32,000 nt of DNA from Methanothermus fervidus DSM 2088 (GTDB taxonomy: Archaea; Methanobacteriota; Methanobacteria; DSM-2088; Methanothermaceae), in contig CP002278.1 in the NCBI GenBank assembly GCA_000166095.1, positions 540,001 through 572,000 of the forward strand, written 5' to 3'. The translations under genes and the position numbers were made by a program. A model generated the notes under the pieces. That model worked only from the letters and a program-made list of their open reading frames with translations, was not told where the DNA came from and did not search any database. Below, one piece after another: positions 12,655-28,680 of this stretch; position 1 is the first letter of the stretch, and every line of letters starts with the position of its first letter.

Positions 12655-12855
12655 TATGATTTCTAACCTCTACTTAGATGCGATGGGAAAATGCCTTAAC
12701 TCATGATTAGAAAACAGTGGTTCGTTTAAATACATAGATTGTGATGGATATTTTTTGATCACTTAAGGACAGCTTTATTCATGTTATTAGCATTGCATTG
12801 ACAAAAGTATAAAATTACATAATATATATAACATAAAATCAGAGGGGGTGCCTAA

Positions 12856-14391
12856 ATGAAGTCTAAAGCTGTATTAACCCTCTCAACATTGCTAGTTCTG
12901 TTGGCAATTTCTCAAGCATATGGAGCTAAAGAAGTTTATCCAGAGTATGGCTCCCTTAAAGATGTAATAGAAAACTCTAATCATGGAGAGACAATATTCC
13001 TGCATAAAGGGACATATCATGCTTCAGGAATTGTGATAGATAAGAATTTAACTATTGTAGGTGAATATAAGGATGGAGTTGTAATTGATGCTCTATGGGC
13101 AAGACCCTATATTCATAATTTCCAGCGGTGCAAATGTAAGGTTGATAAATTTAACATTGACCAATGGAAATGGAGCAGGAGGTGGTGCAATAAAGAATAA
13201 TGGATATTTAGTGGTTAAGAACTGTGCTTTTGTGGATAATTATGCTAGCGAAAAGGGCGGTGCCATTTTTAACAATGGTACTTTAACAATAAATGGTTGC
13301 AGATTTAAAAATAACAAGGTCATCATACTCGGCGGCGGTACTATCTACAATTCTCGTGAAGGTCAGGTTACAATAAGTAACAGTGTATTTGTGAATAACA
13401 ATGCTGCTGTTTTTGGAGGAGCTATAGATAATGATGGTTATTTAACAATCAAAAATTGTGTATTTAAAAACAACACTGCTCGTTTTATGGGCGGTGCCAT
13501 TGATAACGGTGGTAATTTAACAATAATACATTCTACATTATTAATAATAACGTTATTAAAGAGGATGGAGTTGGCGGTGCCATTGATAATATTGGTGTTT
13601 CACATCCTATAGGTGGTAATTTAATAGGTGGTAATCTAATAATAGACAATTGTATATTTGATAGCAATGTCGCTACCAGTGGCGGTGCTATTGCCAATAC
13701 CGGTATTTTAAAAATAACAAATTCTATATTTAATAAAAACATGGTAGATGGAGCTGGCGGTGCCATTGATAATGATGGTACTCTAACAATAGACAACTGT
13801 ACGTTTAATAACAATAATGCTACTGCCTATGGCGGTGCTATTTGTACCTCAAACAACTTAAAAGTTACAAATTCTATATTTAAATGCAACAAAGCTGGAA
13901 AGGAAGGAGGAGCCATTGCTGTTGATCCAAGGGTAGTAAATAAAGGCATTATCTTTGTAGATAACTCTAATATCTTCATTGACAACCTTCCAAATGACTC
14001 CAACATTCCTCTCAATAATACCCTAAATTACAGGATAACCTTAACAAACACTGGAAAATCAACAATAACCATAAAATATTACATCTCAATCTATACAAAT
14101 TCAGTTAATGGAGAAAAAGTTGGCTATAAGGAAGTAACAATAACCCTAAAGCCAAAAGAAACAAAGAGAATATATCTTGGTAAATATCCAGCAGGACATA
14201 TAGTATCTGGGACAATGATTGTCAAAAATCCATCAAAGAAAAGAATTCAATTAAATCTACAGGTGAAATATGAAATTGAAGGATTCGATCCGGAAATAAG
14301 GAAAATAAGCAACTACATAGCTCCAAGAAAGGAATTCAAATACAGTGTGAAATACAGAGTAAATGAATATGGATCTATAGAGGTTAGCTAA
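12856..14391 (+). pseudogene. Adhesin-like surface protein (signal peptide, GGAI-type parallel beta-helix repeats, C-terminal beta-sandwich-like domain) interrupted by two frameshifts
   Basis: SD GAGGGGGTG and a signal peptide (MKSKAVLTLSTLLVLLAISQAYG). The repeat pattern GGAI.N.G.L.I.N..F..N is spread over three track ORFs: frame 1 at 12856-13200, frame 2 at 13085-13612, and frame 1 again from 13516/13741 to 14391. Confidence 0.7.
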
Positions 14392-14460
14392 TATTATAGA
14401 GTTTCTCCACGCGAAATAACTCTCCTTAATTTAAAGAAAAAAAGGAAAACAGAAACAAAG

Positions 14461-15123
14461 TTAAATCAGGCTATATTTAAGGCTACAACTGTCTACGGCT
14501 GCAACATATCTCAGCTGCTTCTTTTGTTTTTTTGTTTCTTTTAAACTATTAAGCACTGCAGAATATGCAACTGATGCAGCCTTATCAAAATGTTTTCTAG
14601 GTATATTCGGATCTCTAGTCTTTAACCACTTATACCAATCATTCTTTTCGTTTTTCGCTGTTGACATCAAAGTATAGAGATCTCCTGGAATATACTTGAT
14701 CTGTGGTGTATAACCAATAACTTGAGACTCATACATCTCATGATCTTTTTTTGACTCTTTAGCTATATTATGTGGAGCACAGAAAGAATCAGATATATAG
14801 TGAGTTGCAACTCCAAAGCAATAACTTGCATACTTGTAATTTCTTTTCTTCCAAGCATCTTTGCCTTTATTAAGCCATTTCTTAGCTTCATAATAAGCTG
14901 GAGGGAAATGGTGTTTTTTGAAGTCCTTAAATTTTAAGTCAGGGGCTGTTGAACCCTCCTTCATAGCTTCGAGGTCAATTTTGCTTTGATATTCAGAAGG
15001 TAGGTTGTTGTAGATCAATTCAACTATGTAGCGATGAGATTCTTCTTTCCATCCATAGGTAAAGCTAAATGTAAATGGCAAAGACAGAACTAAAGCTAGT
15101 AGGAGGTATTTCTTGATGTTCAA
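14461..15123 (-). CDS. Secreted zinc-dependent phospholipase C / P1 nuclease-fold protein
   Basis: A signal peptide ends ...FTYG/W. The ligand pattern matches the PLC/P1 family: N-terminal W, SH, APD, HHF, THYISD, PHN, HEMYE. The start is TTG, preceded by AGGAGGGTG plus 7 nt. Confidence 0.65.
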   Translation of the reverse strand: MNIKKYLLLALVLSLPFTFSFTYGWKEESHRYIVELIYNNLPSEYQSKIDLEAMKEGSTAPDLKFKDFKKHHFPPAYYEAKKWLNKGKDAWKKRNYKYASYCFGVATHYISDSFCAPHNIAKESKKDHEMYESQVIGYTPQIKYIPGDLYTLMSTAKNEKNDWYKWLKTRDPNIPRKHFDKAASVAYSAVLNSLKETKKQKKQLRYVAAVDSCSLKYSLI

Positions 15124-15489: not shown

Positions 15490-16359
15490 ATGTTCAGATG
15501 TAGAGAAATTCTTAATAAAAAAATATTTAAGAATTGTGAAGATTGTCCTGATTTTATATTAAATAAATTGATACCTTTGAATAAACAGGTTGACATAAAC
15601 AAAATTTCAGATTCCTGGAAAAGGTGTTCATGCGGCAAAAGACCTTTAGATGCTGTCATGGCACATATATTAAAAATAATGATAGATGAAAAAGATCTAA
15701 ATAAAAATGCGTGCCTCAGAGATGTTGGATCACCATTATTAACACCCATGTATTATTTTGAGCATTATCCTTATTTACCAAAAGAATCTTTAGTTTTATT
15801 ATCACCTCATATTTCAAAAGAAACAGCTGAAAGGATTGTTAATGAAGTTTCTGAAGTTAAAGGAGTAATTAAGGGCAATATCTCAGAACTAGGAAATTAT
15901 AGATTGTTGTCAGGATCAGATGCAAGATGTGACATTGTTGAAACTCCTGTGGGATGTATTTCATTATTTAAAAAACAAAGTCAAATTCATATTGAATTAC
16001 CAAAAAAACATGACCCTAAAATAGTCACACTATATAATCACATGAAAAATTTATCTGATTTTACAGTATTAGATGCGACATGTGGGGTTGGTACTCTTGG
16101 AATTTTTTCATTGAAGATGGGTGCTAGAAGAGTTATATTTAATGATATTTGGCCACCTGCTACATATATGACATTGAAAAATTTAGAAATAAATGGATTT
16201 AAAAATGGTTTTGAAATATATAATTTAGATGTGCTTAAGCTAATCCAAATACTTAAAGAAAATTTTGATTTATGTATTTTAGATCTTTTTCCTGGGATGG
16301 ATCCAAAAAAATTCATTTACAAAATGAAGAATTGTTGTAAAGAAATTATAGTATTGTAA
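15490..16359 (+). CDS. Putative SAM-dependent methyltransferase with a Cys-rich N-terminal region
   Basis: Motif I VLDATCGVGTLG, then VIFNDI and a late ILDLFPG motif. N-terminal cysteines occur at C..(x)..C..C and CSC. There is no SD. An AATATAAG TATA-like box (15459-15466) ends 24 nt before the ATG, which suggests a leaderless or near-leaderless mRNA. Confidence 0.6.
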   Translation: MFRCREILNKKIFKNCEDCPDFILNKLIPLNKQVDINKISDSWKRCSCGKRPLDAVMAHILKIMIDEKDLNKNACLRDVGSPLLTPMYYFEHYPYLPKESLVLLSPHISKETAERIVNEVSEVKGVIKGNISELGNYRLLSGSDARCDIVETPVGCISLFKKQSQIHIELPKKHDPKIVTLYNHMKNLSDFTVLDATCGVGTLGIFSLKMGARRVIFNDIWPPATYMTLKNLEINGFKNGFEIYNLDVLKLIQILKENFDLCILDLFPGMDPKKFIYKMKNCCKEIIVL

Positions 16360-16369
16360 ATAAAATTTA

Positions 16370-16460
16370 AAAGATGATGAACCTGCGAAGGGTCTGACTT
16401 AAAATGATGAGAGTGCGGTTGTCTGAATAACTTATGATGAAAACGCCAGCGTCTGATTTT
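16370..16460 (+). ncRNA. C/D box sRNA locus with three consecutive C-guide-D modules
   Basis: ATGATGA at 16374, 16404 and 16434. CTGA at 16394, 16423 and 16453. Guides of 13, 12 and 12 nt (acctgcgaagggt, gagtgcggttgt, aaacgccagcgt). Linkers of 6 and 7 nt. The AAAAG / TTTT flanks can pair. T-rich tracts follow. Confidence 0.7.
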
Positions 16461-16482
16461 AATTAATTTTTTATATTTTTTA
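16457..16482 (+). terminator. Oligo-T tracts (archaeal-type terminator) after the C/D sRNA locus
   Basis: TTTT lies directly after the last D box, followed by two T6 runs (16467-16472 and 16476-16481). Confidence 0.4.
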
Positions 16483-16551
16483 TCAATTTTTAATAACTAG
16501 AAAAGTCTTTATATTTTGTAGAGACTACTAACTATTGGGCTTCTTTGGATT

Positions 16552-16559
16552 TTTAAATA
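16552..16559 (+). promoter_or_regulatory. TATA-box-like element upstream of the second C/D sRNA
   Basis: TTTAAATA ends about 34 nt upstream of the C box at 16593. This is compatible with a transcription start about 10 nt before the C box. Confidence 0.35.
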
Positions 16560-16589
16560 TGTAAAAATAAGTATTTGTACTGTGGCATA

Positions 16590-16645
16590 AAAATGATGAA
16601 AAAGCCCAAATCTGATTGATGATGAACGAAAGGACTTTCTGATTT
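16590..16645 (+). ncRNA. Canonical C/D box sRNA (C-D'-C'-D)
   Basis: ATGATGA (16593-16599), 12-nt guide aaaagcccaaat, CTGA (16612-16615), 3-nt loop, ATGATGA (16619-16625), 13-nt guide acgaaaggacttt, CTGA (16639-16642). The AAA/TTT flanks can pair. Confidence 0.7.
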
Positions 16646-16688
16646 GATTGGTAAGTTAATAAATTTTTACTCAATTGACGGTGATTAT

Positions 16689-17963
16689 ATGTATAAAGTA
16701 TTGTTAGATGAAAAAGAATTACCAAAAAAGTGGTATAATATTACGCCAGACCTTCCTAAACAACTGTCACCACCAAAAGGAGATAGAGTAAAGGATTTAC
16801 CAAAGATTTTTTCTAAGCATGTATTAAAACAAGAAACATCTACCAAAAGATGGATAAAAATTCCTAAGAAAATTAGAGAAATTTATAGAGAGATTGGGAG
16901 GCCAACTCCTTTATTTAGAGCCCGTAATTTAGAAAAAATGCTAAACACGCCCGCAAAAATATATTATAAAAGGGAAGATCTTTCTCCGACCGGTAGTCAT
17001 AAATTAAACACTGCAATAGCTCAAGCATATTATGCAAAAAAAGACGGGGCAGAATATTTAACAACTGAAACTGGGGCAGGACAATGGGGCTCAGCACTTT
17101 CCCTTGCATGTTCCCTTATGGATATTGGATGTAAAGTTTTTATGGTACGGGTTTCTTACCACCAAAAACCATTAAGAAAAATATTGATGCAGATTTATGG
17201 CGCTGAAGTTTTCCCTTCACCTAGTAAGGAAACTGAATTTGGTAGGAAAATGTTAAAAAAAGATCCTAAACATCCTGGATCATTAGGAATTGCAATTTCA
17301 GAGGCAATTGAAGTTGCATTGAAAAATGACAATGTATATTATTCTCTTGGAAGTGTATTAAATCATGTGCTTCTCCATCAAACAATAATCGGATTAGAAT
17401 TGAAAAAACAATTGGAAAAAATAGATGAAAAACCAGATATTATTGTGGGATGTGCTGGCGGAGGTAGTAATTTTTCAGGTGCAATTTTTCCTTTTGTAAA
17501 GGAAAAATTAAATGAAAGGTTAGATTGTAAATTTATAGCTGTTGAACCAACAGCATGCCCCACTTTAACTCAAGGAGAATATCGTTATGATTATGGTGAT
17601 ACTGCTGGCATGACTCCTCTAATTAAAATGTATACATTAGGACATGATTTTGTACCACCTCCTGTACATGCAGGAGGTCTTAGGTATCATGGAATGGCAC
17701 CACAATTATCTTTACTTGTAAAAGAAAAAATAGTGGAAGCTAGGGCTGTAAAACAGAAAGATATTTTTAAAAGTGGAATATTATTTTCTAAAGCAGAAGG
17801 GATTGTACCAGCGCCTGAAACTTGTCATGCAATAAAGGTAGCAATTGATGAAGCAAAAAAATGCAAAAAAAGTGGTGAAGAAAAAACAATCGTTATAAAC
17901 TTTTCAGGCCACGGATTATTAGATTTAAAAGGATATGAAAAATATTTAAGCACAGAAGAATAA
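16689..17963 (+). CDS. trpB2: Tryptophan synthase beta chain-like protein (TrpB2 type)
   Basis: PLP lysine motif TGSHKLNTA. The N-terminus ([13 protein letters not shown]) is typical of TrpB2, as is GGGSNFSG. I prefer ATG at 16689 (SD GGTGAT), because the track TTG at 16644 would run through the sRNA. Confidence 0.85.
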
Positions 17964-25937: not shown

Positions 25938-27197
25938 ATGAGCATGACAATGGCAGAAAAAATACTTGCTAAAGCATCTGGGAAAGATAAGGTAGAAGCT
26001 GGAGAAATTGTAATGGCTAATATAGATGTAGCTATGGTTCATGATATAACAGGTCCTCTAACTGTAGAAAGATTTAAAGAAATAGCTGAAAATGTTTGGG
26101 ACCCTGAAAAAATTGTGGTTGTGTTTGATCATCAAGTTCCTGCAGAAAGTATAGAATCTGCTGAAAATCACATCATAATGAGAGAATTTGTAAAGGAACA
26201 AGGTATAAAACATTTTTACGATGTAGGAGAAGGTATCTGTCATCAAGTTTTACCAGAGAAGGGTCATATAGTGCCTGGAGAAGTTGTAGTTGGTGCAGAT
26301 TCACACACTTGCACTCATGGCGCATTAGGTGCATTTTCTACTGGTATAGGATCTACAGACATGGCAATGGTTTTTTCAGAAGGAAAATTATGGTTTAAAG
26401 TCCCCGAAACACTTAGATTTGAAATCAATGGTTCTCTAGACAAATATGTTACTGCAAAAGATGTTATATTAAAAATAATAGGTGAAGTTGGAGTTGATGG
26501 AGCTACATATAAAGCATGTGAATTTTCTGGAGAAGTTATGAAAAATATGAGTATATCCGAGCGTATGGTATTGTGTAATATGGCAATAGAGATGGGTGGT
26601 AAAACAGGACTTGTTGAACCTGATGAAAAAACTTTAAACTATATTAAAAAACGTACAACTAAAAAATTTGAAATTTTTAAAACAGATGTTGATTCTCCAT
26701 CACTTGAGACAATGGAAATAAATGTTGAAAATTTAGAACCACAAGTTGCTTGTCCGCATAATGTAGACAATGTTAAGCCAGTTTCTGAAGTTGAAGGTGT
26801 TGAAATTGATCAAATATTCTTAGGTTCATGTACAAATGGTAGATTAAAAGATTTAAGAGATGCTGCAAAAATAATAAAAGGACATGAAATAGCAGACAAT
26901 GTAAGAATGCTTGTAATACCTGCATCAAGAGAAATTTATAAAAGAGCTTTAAATGAAGGGCTAATAAAGATATTCTTAGAAGCTGGTGCAGTTGTATGTA
27001 ATCCTTGTTGTGGACCATGTCTTGGAGGACATATAGGTGTACTAGGACCAAATGAAGTGTGTTTATCCACATCTAATCGTAATTTTAAAGGTCGTCAAGG
27101 TAGTACTAAAGCTAAAATATATTTATCATCGGCGGTAGTAGCTGCAGCTTCTGCTATAACTGGAAAAATAACTGATCCTAGAAGCTTAGAAAGGTGA
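25938..27197 (+). CDS. leuC: 3-isopropylmalate dehydratase / homoaconitase large subunit (aconitase family), leaning LeuC
   Basis: [12 protein letters not shown]...[25 protein letters not shown] and CGPCLG Fe-S cluster cysteines. SD AAGGAGGA. Confidence 0.8.
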
Positions 27198-27201
27198 GAG
27201 A

Positions 27202-27684
27202 ATGAAAGGCAGGGTTTGGAAATTCGGTGACAATATAGATACAGATCTTATAATTCCTGGACGATATCTGACAATAAGAGATCCAAAAAAATTAGCAAAA
27301 CATTTGATGGAAGGAATAGATCCTAACTTCCATAAAAAAATTAAGAAAGGAGATTTCATAGTCGCTGGTAAAAATTTTGGATGTGGATCATCAAGAGAAC
27401 ATGCACCACTTGCAATGAAAGGTGCTGGTATTGGTGCTGTAATTGCAGAATCGTTTGCAAGAATATTTTATCGAAATGCTATTAATTTAGGTATTCCAGC
27501 TATAGAAGCTCCAAATGTTTCTAAAAAAATTAAAAATAATGAAGTTATAGAAATAGATTTAAAAGAAGGAATCATAAGAAAAGAAAATGGTGAAATTATA
27601 AAATTTAAAAAGTTGCCAGAATTCATGTTAAAAATAATTGAGAAAGGTGGCTTAATACAATATTTAAAAGAAAAAAAGAAATGA
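27202..27684 (+). CDS. leuD: 3-isopropylmalate dehydratase / homoaconitase small subunit, leaning LeuD
   Basis: GRVWKFGDNIDTD..IPGRYL, GKNFGCGSSREHAP, ESFARIFYRNAIN. By recollection this is closer to the archaeal IPMI small subunit than to HacB. Confidence 0.75.
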   Translation: MKGRVWKFGDNIDTDLIIPGRYLTIRDPKKLAKHLMEGIDPNFHKKIKKGDFIVAGKNFGCGSSREHAPLAMKGAGIGAVIAESFARIFYRNAINLGIPAIEAPNVSKKIKNNEVIEIDLKEGIIRKENGEIIKFKKLPEFMLKIIEKGGLIQYLKEKKK

Positions 27685-27705
27685 TCGGAAAAGAGGCGTC
27701 GAAAG

Positions 27706-28680
27706 ATGAAAATAGCTGTAATTCCGGGTGATGGAATAGGTAAAGAAGTTACAGAAGCTACCATACATATATTAAGTGCTTTAGATCTTCCTTTAACTTA
27801 CGAATTTGGGGAAGCAGGAGATGAATGTCTTAAAAAAGAAGGTTCTGCATTGCCTGAGGATACATTAAAACTTGCAAAAAAATCTGATGCTGTTTTATTT
27901 GGTGCAGTAGGAGAATCAGCTGCTGATGTCATTGTTAAATTAAGAAAAGAACTAGACCTCTTCGCAAATGTAAGACCAGTTAAATGCTATCCTGGAATAG
28001 AATGTATTAGGAAAGATATAGACTTAACAATAGTGAGAGAGAATACAGAGTGCCTATATTCTGGAATAGAGAGATATACAGATGAAGGAGCTGAAGCTGT
28101 TAGAGTTATAACTAGGAAAGCATGTGAAAGGATTTGTGAGTTTGCATTCAAAATTGCAAATGAAAAAGTTACTGCTGTACATAAAGCAAATGTCCTTAAG
28201 AAGACAGATGGGTTGTTTAGGGAAGTATTTTATGAGGTTGCTGAAGGATATCCAGAGATTGAAGCTGAGGATGTTTATGTTGATGCAATGGCCCTCTACC
28301 TAATAACAAAACCACAAGATTTTGATGTTTTGGTCACAACAAATCTATATGGGGACATACTTTCTGATGAGGCTGCTGGTTTAGTTGGTGGTCTTGGATT
28401 GGCACCATCTGCAAATATAGGTGAAAAAAATTCGCTTTTCGAACCTGTACATGGATCTGCTCCAGATATTGCAGGTAAAGGGATTGCAAATCCAACTGCA
28501 ATGATCCTATCCTCAGTTATGATGTTGAGGCATCTTGGATTTGAGAGAGAAGGTGATTTGGTTGAGAATGCTTTGATTGAGGTCCTTAGGGAGGGAAAGG
28601 TAACTCCTGATCTTGGTGGAAATCTTAAGACTATGGAGATGGCTGAGGAAATAAGAAAATATGTACTGGAGGCTAAATAA
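27706..28680 (+). CDS. leuB: 3-isopropylmalate (or homoisocitrate) dehydrogenase
   Basis: MKIAVIPGDGIGKEV, NLYGDILSD and GSAPDIAGKGIANP are signatures of the beta-decarboxylating dehydrogenase family. Confidence 0.8.
   Translation: MKIAVIPGDGIGKEVTEATIHILSALDLPLTYEFGEAGDECLKKEGSALPEDTLKLAKKSDAVLFGAVGESAADVIVKLRKELDLFANVRPVKCYPGIECIRKDIDLTIVRENTECLYSGIERYTDEGAEAVRVITRKACERICEFAFKIANEKVTAVHKANVLKKTDGLFREVFYEVAEGYPEIEAEDVYVDAMALYLITKPQDFDVLVTTNLYGDILSDEAAGLVGGLGLAPSANIGEKNSLFEPVHGSAPDIAGKGIANPTAMILSSVMMLRHLGFEREGDLVENALIEVLREGKVTPDLGGNLKTMEMAEEIRKYVLEAK

Follow-up and report, generated by a model that had tools for sequence, protein, structure and literature searches.

A previously unannotated cluster of box C/D methylation-guide RNA genes, one canonical and one with three modules, in Methanothermus fervidus

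In the intergenic region at 16360-16688 of the window (the whole 32-kb stretch of DNA analyzed here, counted from its first letter), genes for box C/D methylation-guide RNAs that had so far escaped annotation lie clustered together: one gene is canonical, and the other is built of three modules. The latter, hereafter the triple element, consists of three perfect ATGATGA-N12/13-CTGA modules at 16374-16456 on the + strand, with C boxes placed at an exact 30-nt spacing, and reads aaag-ATGATGA-acctgcgaagggt-CTGA-cttaaa-ATGATGA-gagtgcggttgt-CTGA-ataactt-ATGATGA-aaacgccagcgt-CTGA-tttt (Table 1). When re-read from the sequence, the C and D boxes stood exactly where a first-pass annotation had placed them. 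The triple element is a real C/D feature of unusual three-module build. Maturation into a single three-guide RNA of ~85-95 nt is our leading but tentative reading of its product.

Table 1 Coordinates of the triple element, its flanks, and the neighboring genes
Feature	Position	Strand	Remarks
289-aa Cys-rich protein gene, class I SAM methyltransferase domain (weak)	15490..16359	+	PRK14968 E = 5e-10
5' flank TTAAAA, candidate 5' strand of terminal stem	16367..16372	+	pairs with TTTTAA 16457-16462
C box 1 ATGATGA	16374..16380	+	perfect RUGAUGA consensus
Guide 1 ACCTGCGAAGGGT, 13 nt	16381..16393	+	8/13 G+C
D-type box 1 CTGA	16394..16397	+	perfect consensus
6-nt spacer CTTAAA, D box 1 to C box 2	16398..16403	+	putative loop of K-loop 1
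C box 2 ATGATGA	16404..16410	+	perfect consensus
Guide 2 GAGTGCGGTTGT, 12 nt	16411..16422	+	7/12 G+C
D-type box 2 CTGA	16423..16426	+	perfect consensus
7-nt spacer ATAACTT, D box 2 to C box 3	16427..16433	+	putative loop of K-loop 2; no T-run
C box 3 ATGATGA	16434..16440	+	perfect consensus
Guide 3 AAACGCCAGCGT, 12 nt	16441..16452	+	7/12 G+C
D box 3 CTGA	16453..16456	+	perfect consensus
Oligo-T runs T4 (16457-60), T6 (16467-72), T6 (16476-81), T5 (16487-91)	16457..16491	+	likely archaeal transcription stop (predicted)
Neighboring two-guide C/D sRNA	16593..16642	+	Rfam snoPyro_CD 39.4 bits, E = 6.8e-7, full model length

Motif statistics, genomic setting, and conservation

A scan of the 32-kb window, both strands included, gave 5 matches to the motif pattern ATGATGAN{12,13}CTGA, against a mean of 0.06 in 100 dinucleotide-preserving shuffles, none of which reached 5. 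All five modules lie on the + strand inside the same 329-nt intergenic region. At 137 nt downstream of the triple element, and absent from the first-pass annotation, lies a textbook archaeal two-guide box C/D sRNA, laid out as C box ATGATGA, guide AAAAGCCCAAAT (12 nt), D' box CTGA, loop TTG, C' box ATGATGA, guide ACGAAAGGACTTT (13 nt), and D box CTGA.

An Rfam search of the whole window at gathering score returned no match; the gathering scores of the C/D models, which are genus-specific, are 38-45 bits. Below gathering score, matches were obtained to the neighboring sRNA (Table 1) and to both halves of the triple element: the general Pyrococcus C/D model (RF00095 snoPyro_CD) matched modules 1-2 (16370-16429; 26.1 bits, E = 0.002), and the sR12 model matched modules 2-3 (16402-16457; 22.2 bits, E = 0.013; E = 0.089 for sR20), with model alignment requiring an insertion at the D-to-C spacer. 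Since both two-module halves are matched, either register resembles a C/D sRNA to independent models. The identification of a box C/D sRNA locus in the first-pass annotation is therefore supported by motif statistics, the archaeal host, the canonical neighbor, and Rfam model matches.

The terminal C (RUGAUGA) and D (CUGA) boxes of the archaeal box C/D sRNA family are present in the triple element, and the internal D'/C' pair with a short loop is present twice. Its guide lengths of 13, 12, and 12 nt also fit this family, whereas the guide count is three rather than two. The D-to-C spacers of 6 and 7 nt correspond to K-loop distance, although folding into K-loops at such lengths is putative, and the loops of the neighboring sRNA and of a Methanobrevibacter-type sRNA are shorter (3 nt). 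The three guides were already described in the first-pass annotation as different from one another and GC-rich, which we confirmed: they have no sequence relationship to one another, and a G+C content of at least 7/12 is reached by only 3.2% of intergenic 12-mers in the 32-kb window. Because all three are GC-rich in a spacer of 26% G+C (31.6% across the window), we read them as a sign that no module is drifting.

The TrpB-like PLP enzyme encoded after the spacer is 100% identical to a Methanothermus fervidus nr entry, and M. fervidus is a hyperthermophilic methanogen. Box C/D sRNAs are abundant in hyperthermophilic archaea (e.g., PMC7994747), and archaeal C/D sRNA genes commonly lie no more than 25 nt from the end of an ORF, often without a promoter of their own (Breuer et al. 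2021, PMC7994747). [quoted passage not shown] The upstream protein scored far below cut-off against the PrmA and TRM1 models. Walking the flanks ~1.2 kb past one end of the window and 10 kb past the other revealed no rRNA, tRNA, or further C/D modules.

In Methanothermobacter, the TrpB-like and Fae-Hps genes are still paired at the syntenic locus, with a 121-nt spacer, a different and divergent upstream gene, and no C/D module. A second M. fervidus strain, recovered from Logan assemblies, is 99.5-99.8% identical to the window and carries an unchanged triple element, which at this level of identity says little on conservation. The single change in a 351-nt region of this second strain, A to G at 16631, falls inside the D guide of the neighboring sRNA, where it would be expected to convert an A-U pair to G-U. 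Separately, Logan contigs of SRR8649348-50 carry Illumina adapter and are probably MNase-seq DNA from a chromatin study; an adapter-joined contig end at 16602 was considered as an RNA end and rejected as a probable artefact of the MNase-seq library.

Transcription signals and the product of the triple element

Oligo-T is the archaeal transcription terminator. No run of four or more T occurs within 16360-16456, and four such runs begin directly after module 3 (Table 1), from which we infer a single transcription unit that comprises all three modules and ends behind the third. A scan for sigma-70 promoters and intrinsic terminators gave nothing, these models not being applicable to archaea. The first six bases after D box 3 double as the 3' strand of the candidate terminal stem.

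Contiguous Watson-Crick pairing between flanks amounts to 6 bp for C box 1 with D box 3, 5 bp for C box 2 with D box 3, and 1 bp for C box 1 with D box 2. For the same geometry, six or more pairs arise with a probability of 0.004 across the window and of 0.012 within intergenic DNA. The first-pass annotation had proposed a terminal pairing of AAAG with TTTT; the outermost flanks do pair best, but the stem is better drawn as TTAAAA (16367-16372) with TTTTAA (16457-16462). An A-rich leader facing a T-rich terminator could by itself give rise to this A-U pairing. The RNAfold minimum free energy structure includes the outer stem, and the 107-nt RNA does not exceed shuffled sequences in structure (z = 0.66), so that the guides are predicted to be unstructured, which would suit open guides.

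In a canonical sRNA, box C pairs with box D to form a K-turn, and D' pairs with C' to form a K-loop. For the triple element, K-loops between D box 1 and C box 2 and between D box 2 and C box 3, together with a K-turn between C box 1 and D box 3, are the only arrangement that partners every box. In the single RNA that we tentatively prefer, D box 1 and C box 2 would thus fold locally into one K-loop, D box 2 and C box 3 into a second, and C box 1 and D box 3 would close the terminal K-turn, aided by the 6-bp A-U stem. Every 12-13-nt guide would then be flanked by two L7Ae-bound K-motifs at canonical spacing, and each could direct fibrillarin to the nucleotide paired with the fifth residue upstream of its D-type box. 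The motifs with their spacing and excess over chance, the guide composition, the layout of T-runs, and the flank complementarity are read directly from the sequence; transcription, a single three-guide product, its assembly with L7Ae, Nop5, and fibrillarin, and its targets are what we infer.

Six perfect boxes, three GC-rich guides, and the lack of decay in either end module support a single RNA. According to the protection model, shielding by the RNP sets the mature ends, and flanking sequence is freely changeable (PMC7994747). If this model applies, and as both internal K-loops are local, the default product would be the whole three-module body. Several points weigh against a single RNA: the canonical particle, in which one Nop5 dimer bridges two K-motifs, is an obstacle, the spacers are longer than the comparison loops, and guides 1 and 3 are orphan in relatives. 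One Nop5 dimer provides two RNA sites (PMC12045711; established structures), and a three-guide RNA has three K-motif sites, so that free Nop5 or a higher-order particle would be needed. That one RNA carries three active guides, with the K-turn and two K-loops closing a ring with three guide edges in a higher-order particle, is a possibility we hold to be somewhat less likely than not; such a particle might, for example, contain two RNAs and three Nop5 dimers, extending the di-sRNP model. Overall, the RNA of ~90 nt with three guides suggested by the first-pass annotation is slightly favored by the layout of T-runs, the best pairing being the outermost, and the perfect boxes, although the stem available to modules 2-3 is nearly equal at 5 bp.

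This last stem speaks for ordinary two-guide sRNAs, either from modules 2-3 with module 1 as a trimmed leader or spare, or as overlapping isoforms of modules 1-2 and 2-3 that have the middle module in common and differ in how the boxes choose their partners, an explanation we regard as a serious possibility, itself short of probable. It would agree with the fit of two-module Rfam models to both halves, with the two RNA sites of the canonical Nop5 dimer, and with archaeal C/D sRNAs being uniformly two-guide in the portions of the literature surveyed. Yet it would leave over a module that still has perfect boxes and a GC-rich guide, and neither a T-run nor a recognizable processing signal separates the modules. 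With flanks pairing over 1 bp only, an sRNA of modules 1-2 would moreover lack a terminal stem. Finally, the K-loop of D box 1 and C box 2, being local and first to be transcribed, should form and protect module 1 before D box 3 exists.

Alternatively, the triple element might be an evolutionary intermediate that arose by recent partial duplication or fusion, with one end module non-functional and bound to decay. C boxes 1 and 2 have similar leaders (TTAAAAG and TTAAA, respectively), guides 1 and 3 are orphan in limited target tests on relatives, the locus is missing from Methanothermobacter, and the composite, transposed, and circularly permuted sRNAs of Pyrobaculum, in the portions of Lui et al. 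2018 (PMC6009581) consulted, need such intermediates. We nevertheless consider this explanation improbable: no box deviates at any position, the joint chance of three GC-rich guides in a spacer of 26% G+C is ~3e-5 if they were drifting, and the guides, being unrelated in sequence, do not represent a simple recent tandem copy.

Lastly, a chance occurrence or another kind of repeat, such as a small tandem repeat, an array bound by protein, or a sequence encoding a leader peptide, is very improbable. Module 1 does read as an in-frame 7-codon mini-ORF (ATG ATG AAC CTG CGA AGG GTC TGA), and the viral contigs that matched a strict triple C-box pattern all held plain tandem repeats. However, modules 2 and 3 lie out of frame, and the triple element combines identical boxes with wholly different "spacers" where a tandem repeat does the opposite (the viral ones have identical "guides"). 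Both the excess of modules over shuffled sequence and the adjacent canonical sRNA also argue for a guide RNA locus.

Candidate targets in 5S rRNA

To identify potential targets, guides were compared to the rRNA operons of Methanobacteriaceae relatives, including M. thermautotrophicus Delta H, and to the tRNA of relatives; alignments were built, and sites were scored by agreement at every invariant column. No guide had a perfect site in Methanobacteriaceae rRNA operons, and the invariant-column analysis led repeatedly to 5S rRNA. Guide 2 matches positions 25-36 of the relatives' 5S rRNA (ACACCCGGACTC) at 10/12, with 8 invariant columns matched and 0 contradicted (shuffle p ~0.014). The D guide of the neighboring sRNA forms 11 contiguous pairs (one G-U) with positions 55-65 of the 5S rRNA of one relative (p ~0.0095), and the best site of its D' guide is directly 3' of the D-guide site, i.e., in colinear order for a double guide (joint p ~0.017). 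About half of archaeal sRNAs are double guides, both targets of which lie within 100 nt of each other (Dennis et al.).

These sequence matches, which come from other genera and not from M. fervidus, suggest 5S rRNA as a candidate target of guide 2 and of the neighbor's two guides. The predicted modified residues would be C29 (guide 2), U58, and G72 in L024 5S numbering. The 5S rRNA of M. fervidus is accordingly predicted to contain ACAACCGCACTC near 25-36 and, near 55-76, AAGTCCTTTCG with ATTTGGGC no more than a few nt behind it; an exact 5S pattern would be, for example, AAGTCCTTTCG, a gap of 0-5, and ATTTGGGCTT. Together, the triple element and its canonical neighbor may make up a cluster of guides directed mostly at 5S rRNA.

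For guides 1 and 3, no credible target was found in the 16S, 23S, 5S, or tRNA of relatives. The expectation in the first-pass annotation that the guides are antisense to rRNA or tRNA thus finds a suggestive 5S match for guide 2 in relatives, but guides 1 and 3 are without a match there. A control C/D sRNA located upstream of rRNA operons in Methanobrevibacter-type metagenome contigs shares at most 8 contiguous nt with its own rRNA operon; since this sRNA has no 9-nt match in its own operon, missing operon matches are weak evidence against function.

A number of individual candidates were rejected. A pairing of guide 3 with 23S helix 89 (9/12 match, E. coli 2482-2493) was dropped as the pattern was absent from the genome contig collection and a shorter form of it from the metagenome contigs, and one of guide 1 with an anticodon arm (ACC-CUUCGCA-GGU, which would place C at position 37) as no tRNA of relatives matches. 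For B2, a 23S site beside CCGTCTTGAAACACGG is matched by M. thermautotrophicus at only 8/13, and candidate sites in the 530-loop and in 16S h16-h17 contradict invariant columns. In Methanobacteriaceae, mer adjoins the rRNA operon; M. fervidus Mer was not among the matches listed (at least 120). A search with spurious ORFs on the 23S antisense strand gave 36 proteins, and the two looked up were from other organisms.

Relation to known guide systems and implications

With archaeal box C/D sRNAs (RF00095 snoPyro_CD, Pyrococcus sR families), the triple element shares perfect boxes, unstructured 12-13-nt guides, possible K-loops, a short A-U terminal pairing, a position <25 nt past the end of a same-strand ORF, and a hyperthermophilic host. 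It differs from them in having three modules instead of two, spacers of 6 and 7 nt compared to 3 nt in the neighbor, and sub-threshold Rfam scores. Polycistronic clusters of two or three C/D sRNA genes are also known (Tripp et al. 2017, as relayed in the sections consulted of Breuer et al. 2021, PMC7994747), and as in these clusters, several units here occupy one strand of one spacer with no terminator between, the triple element and canonical sRNA being 137 nt apart. However, polycistronic clusters are strings of complete two-guide genes, whereas the triple element has an odd count of modules, equivalent to 1.5 genes, and these are only 6-7 nt apart, which is a K-loop and not an intergenic distance.

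Similarities also exist with TIGR arrays and their Tas proteins (Faure et al. 2025, PMC12045711), in which short guides are regularly arranged in tandem between box C/D-like flanks and end at a terminator, and for which the flanking motifs bind a Nop domain (PMC12045711). TIGR arrays, however, include 5-15 units with ~9-nt spacers, alternating edge and loop repeats, and an adjacent tas gene, lack L7Ae K-turns, and target DNA. By contrast, the triple element has three units, 12-13-nt guides, and full K-turn boxes, and does not qualify as a TIGR array; no Nop-domain match was found among the window ORFs scanned against Pfam or NCBIfam. Archaeal H/ACA sRNAs, which carry between one and three guide hairpins (PMC4652768), provide a precedent for three guide units per RNA, but are another class of RNA and differ in their protein set (Cbf5/Gar1/Nop10), their independent hairpins, and the lack of a closed ring of K-motifs.

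An evolutionary parallel may be drawn with the C/D sRNAs of Pyrobaculum, in which C-guide-D units like those of the triple element are gained, lost, and reshuffled; the portions of Lui et al. 2018 (PMC6009581) consulted describe guide replacement, composite sRNAs, and one family circularly permuted from another. A three-module gene is the expected intermediate of circular permutation, as far as this account goes, although the Pyrobaculum products in these same portions are still two-guide RNAs, with no three-module gene reported. In a literature search of incomplete coverage, no description of a three-guide C/D RNA was found, and only an H/ACA paper matched.

At a minimum, the analysis adds two unannotated guide RNA genes for M. 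fervidus, for which no C/D sRNA description was found in the literature searched. The 5S rRNA leads would help explain the ribose methylation of 5S rRNA in hyperthermophiles, targets that the surveys consulted mention but do not compile. Box C/D RNPs are described as strictly two-guide, their geometry being dictated by the Nop5 dimer, which reaches across two K-motifs at a distance of 12 nt. A natural RNA with three perfectly spaced modules would test this two-guide rule, pointing either to another stoichiometry or to a choice between overlapping registers of one precursor, and either outcome informs sRNP assembly and the question of mono- versus di-sRNPs. The triple element also bears on the gain, loss, and permutation of guide modules, and on how C/D RNAs relate to tandem guide arrays, a connection proposed only recently. 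A functional three-guide RNA would surprise specialists of sRNP structure; if confirmed, C/D guide RNAs with more than two guides would have their first natural example, and two-guide sRNAs a structural link to tandem guide arrays such as TIGR.

Annotation and candidate promoter of the canonical sRNA

The canonical two-guide box C/D sRNA, which is unannotated, lies in the TrpB-like gene's leader. In GenBank, the TrpB-like protein (439 aa) starts from a TTG at 16644, one base past the D box of this sRNA, and the RefSeq protein (424 aa) starts from an ATG at 16689; the GenBank annotation probably over-extends into the sRNA. Two TATA-like boxes lie between the triple element and the sRNA, and the second, ~34–41 nt upstream of the sRNA C box, could be the sRNA's own promoter, although in such AT-rich DNA it may have arisen by chance. 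The first 25 nt of a Logan contig (L073 1–25, assembled from sequencing run SRR8649348) are Illumina adapter, which continues directly into window position 16602; the junction is probably a library artefact rather than an RNA end, and the data set resembles MNase-seq.

Location of features in the window and in other loci (L handles, fetched contigs or loci)
Feature	Location	Strand	Context
289-aa protein gene	15490–16359	+	upstream of guide cluster
TATA-like box TTTATATT, GAAAAG just before	16508–16515	+	between triple element and canonical sRNA
TATA-like box TTTAAATA	16552–16559	+	between triple element and canonical sRNA
Canonical C/D sRNA	16589–16645	+
Methanobrevibacter-type C/D sRNA	L012 316–365, L038 898, L042 1180, L059 2911	+
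Methanobrevibacter-type C/D sRNA	L040, L041, L051	-
mer–rRNA arrangement	L014, L019, L020, L024, L028, L074–L077

Variation and assembly breaks in M. fervidus

Logan runs DRR667206 and SRR24635347 (L068, L071) represent another M. fervidus strain, 99.5–99.8% identical to the window. Its sole change across a 351-nt region, at 16631, converts the canonical sRNA guide ACGAAAGGACTTT to ACGAAGGGACTTT, and would replace an A-U pair with the predicted target by G-U. All independent Logan assemblies of M. fervidus break at the same points, indicating repeated sequence there: window ~12670–15100, spanning ORFs with beta-helix and POMP-repeat signatures (12856–14391); ~26500–28600, spanning aconitase-family and isopropylmalate dehydrogenase genes; and ~1.2 kb before the window start.

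Neighbours of rRNA operons and of the guide cluster

A canonical C/D sRNA (ATGATGA-ACCCTATGAGCT-CTGA-3 nt-GTGATGA-ATGATGGGCGAG-CTGA) is conserved among metagenome contigs of the Methanobrevibacter type, with the 16S rRNA gene ~2.7 kb downstream and an 8-nt match between the second guide and 23S rRNA, near the 3' domain. Across 15 metagenome loci and the four Methanothermobacter genome loci retrieved (L074–L077), an rRNA operon of Methanobacteriaceae has mer (methylene-H4MPT reductase) ~600 nt upstream and divergent.

In M. fervidus, the guide cluster begins 14 nt past the end of the gene for a 289-aa protein. Along with a class I SAM methyltransferase domain, this protein has an N-terminal half containing several Cys pairs, and its family matches (PRK14968, PrmA, TRM1) are all weak. 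It may be functionally linked to RNA methylation.
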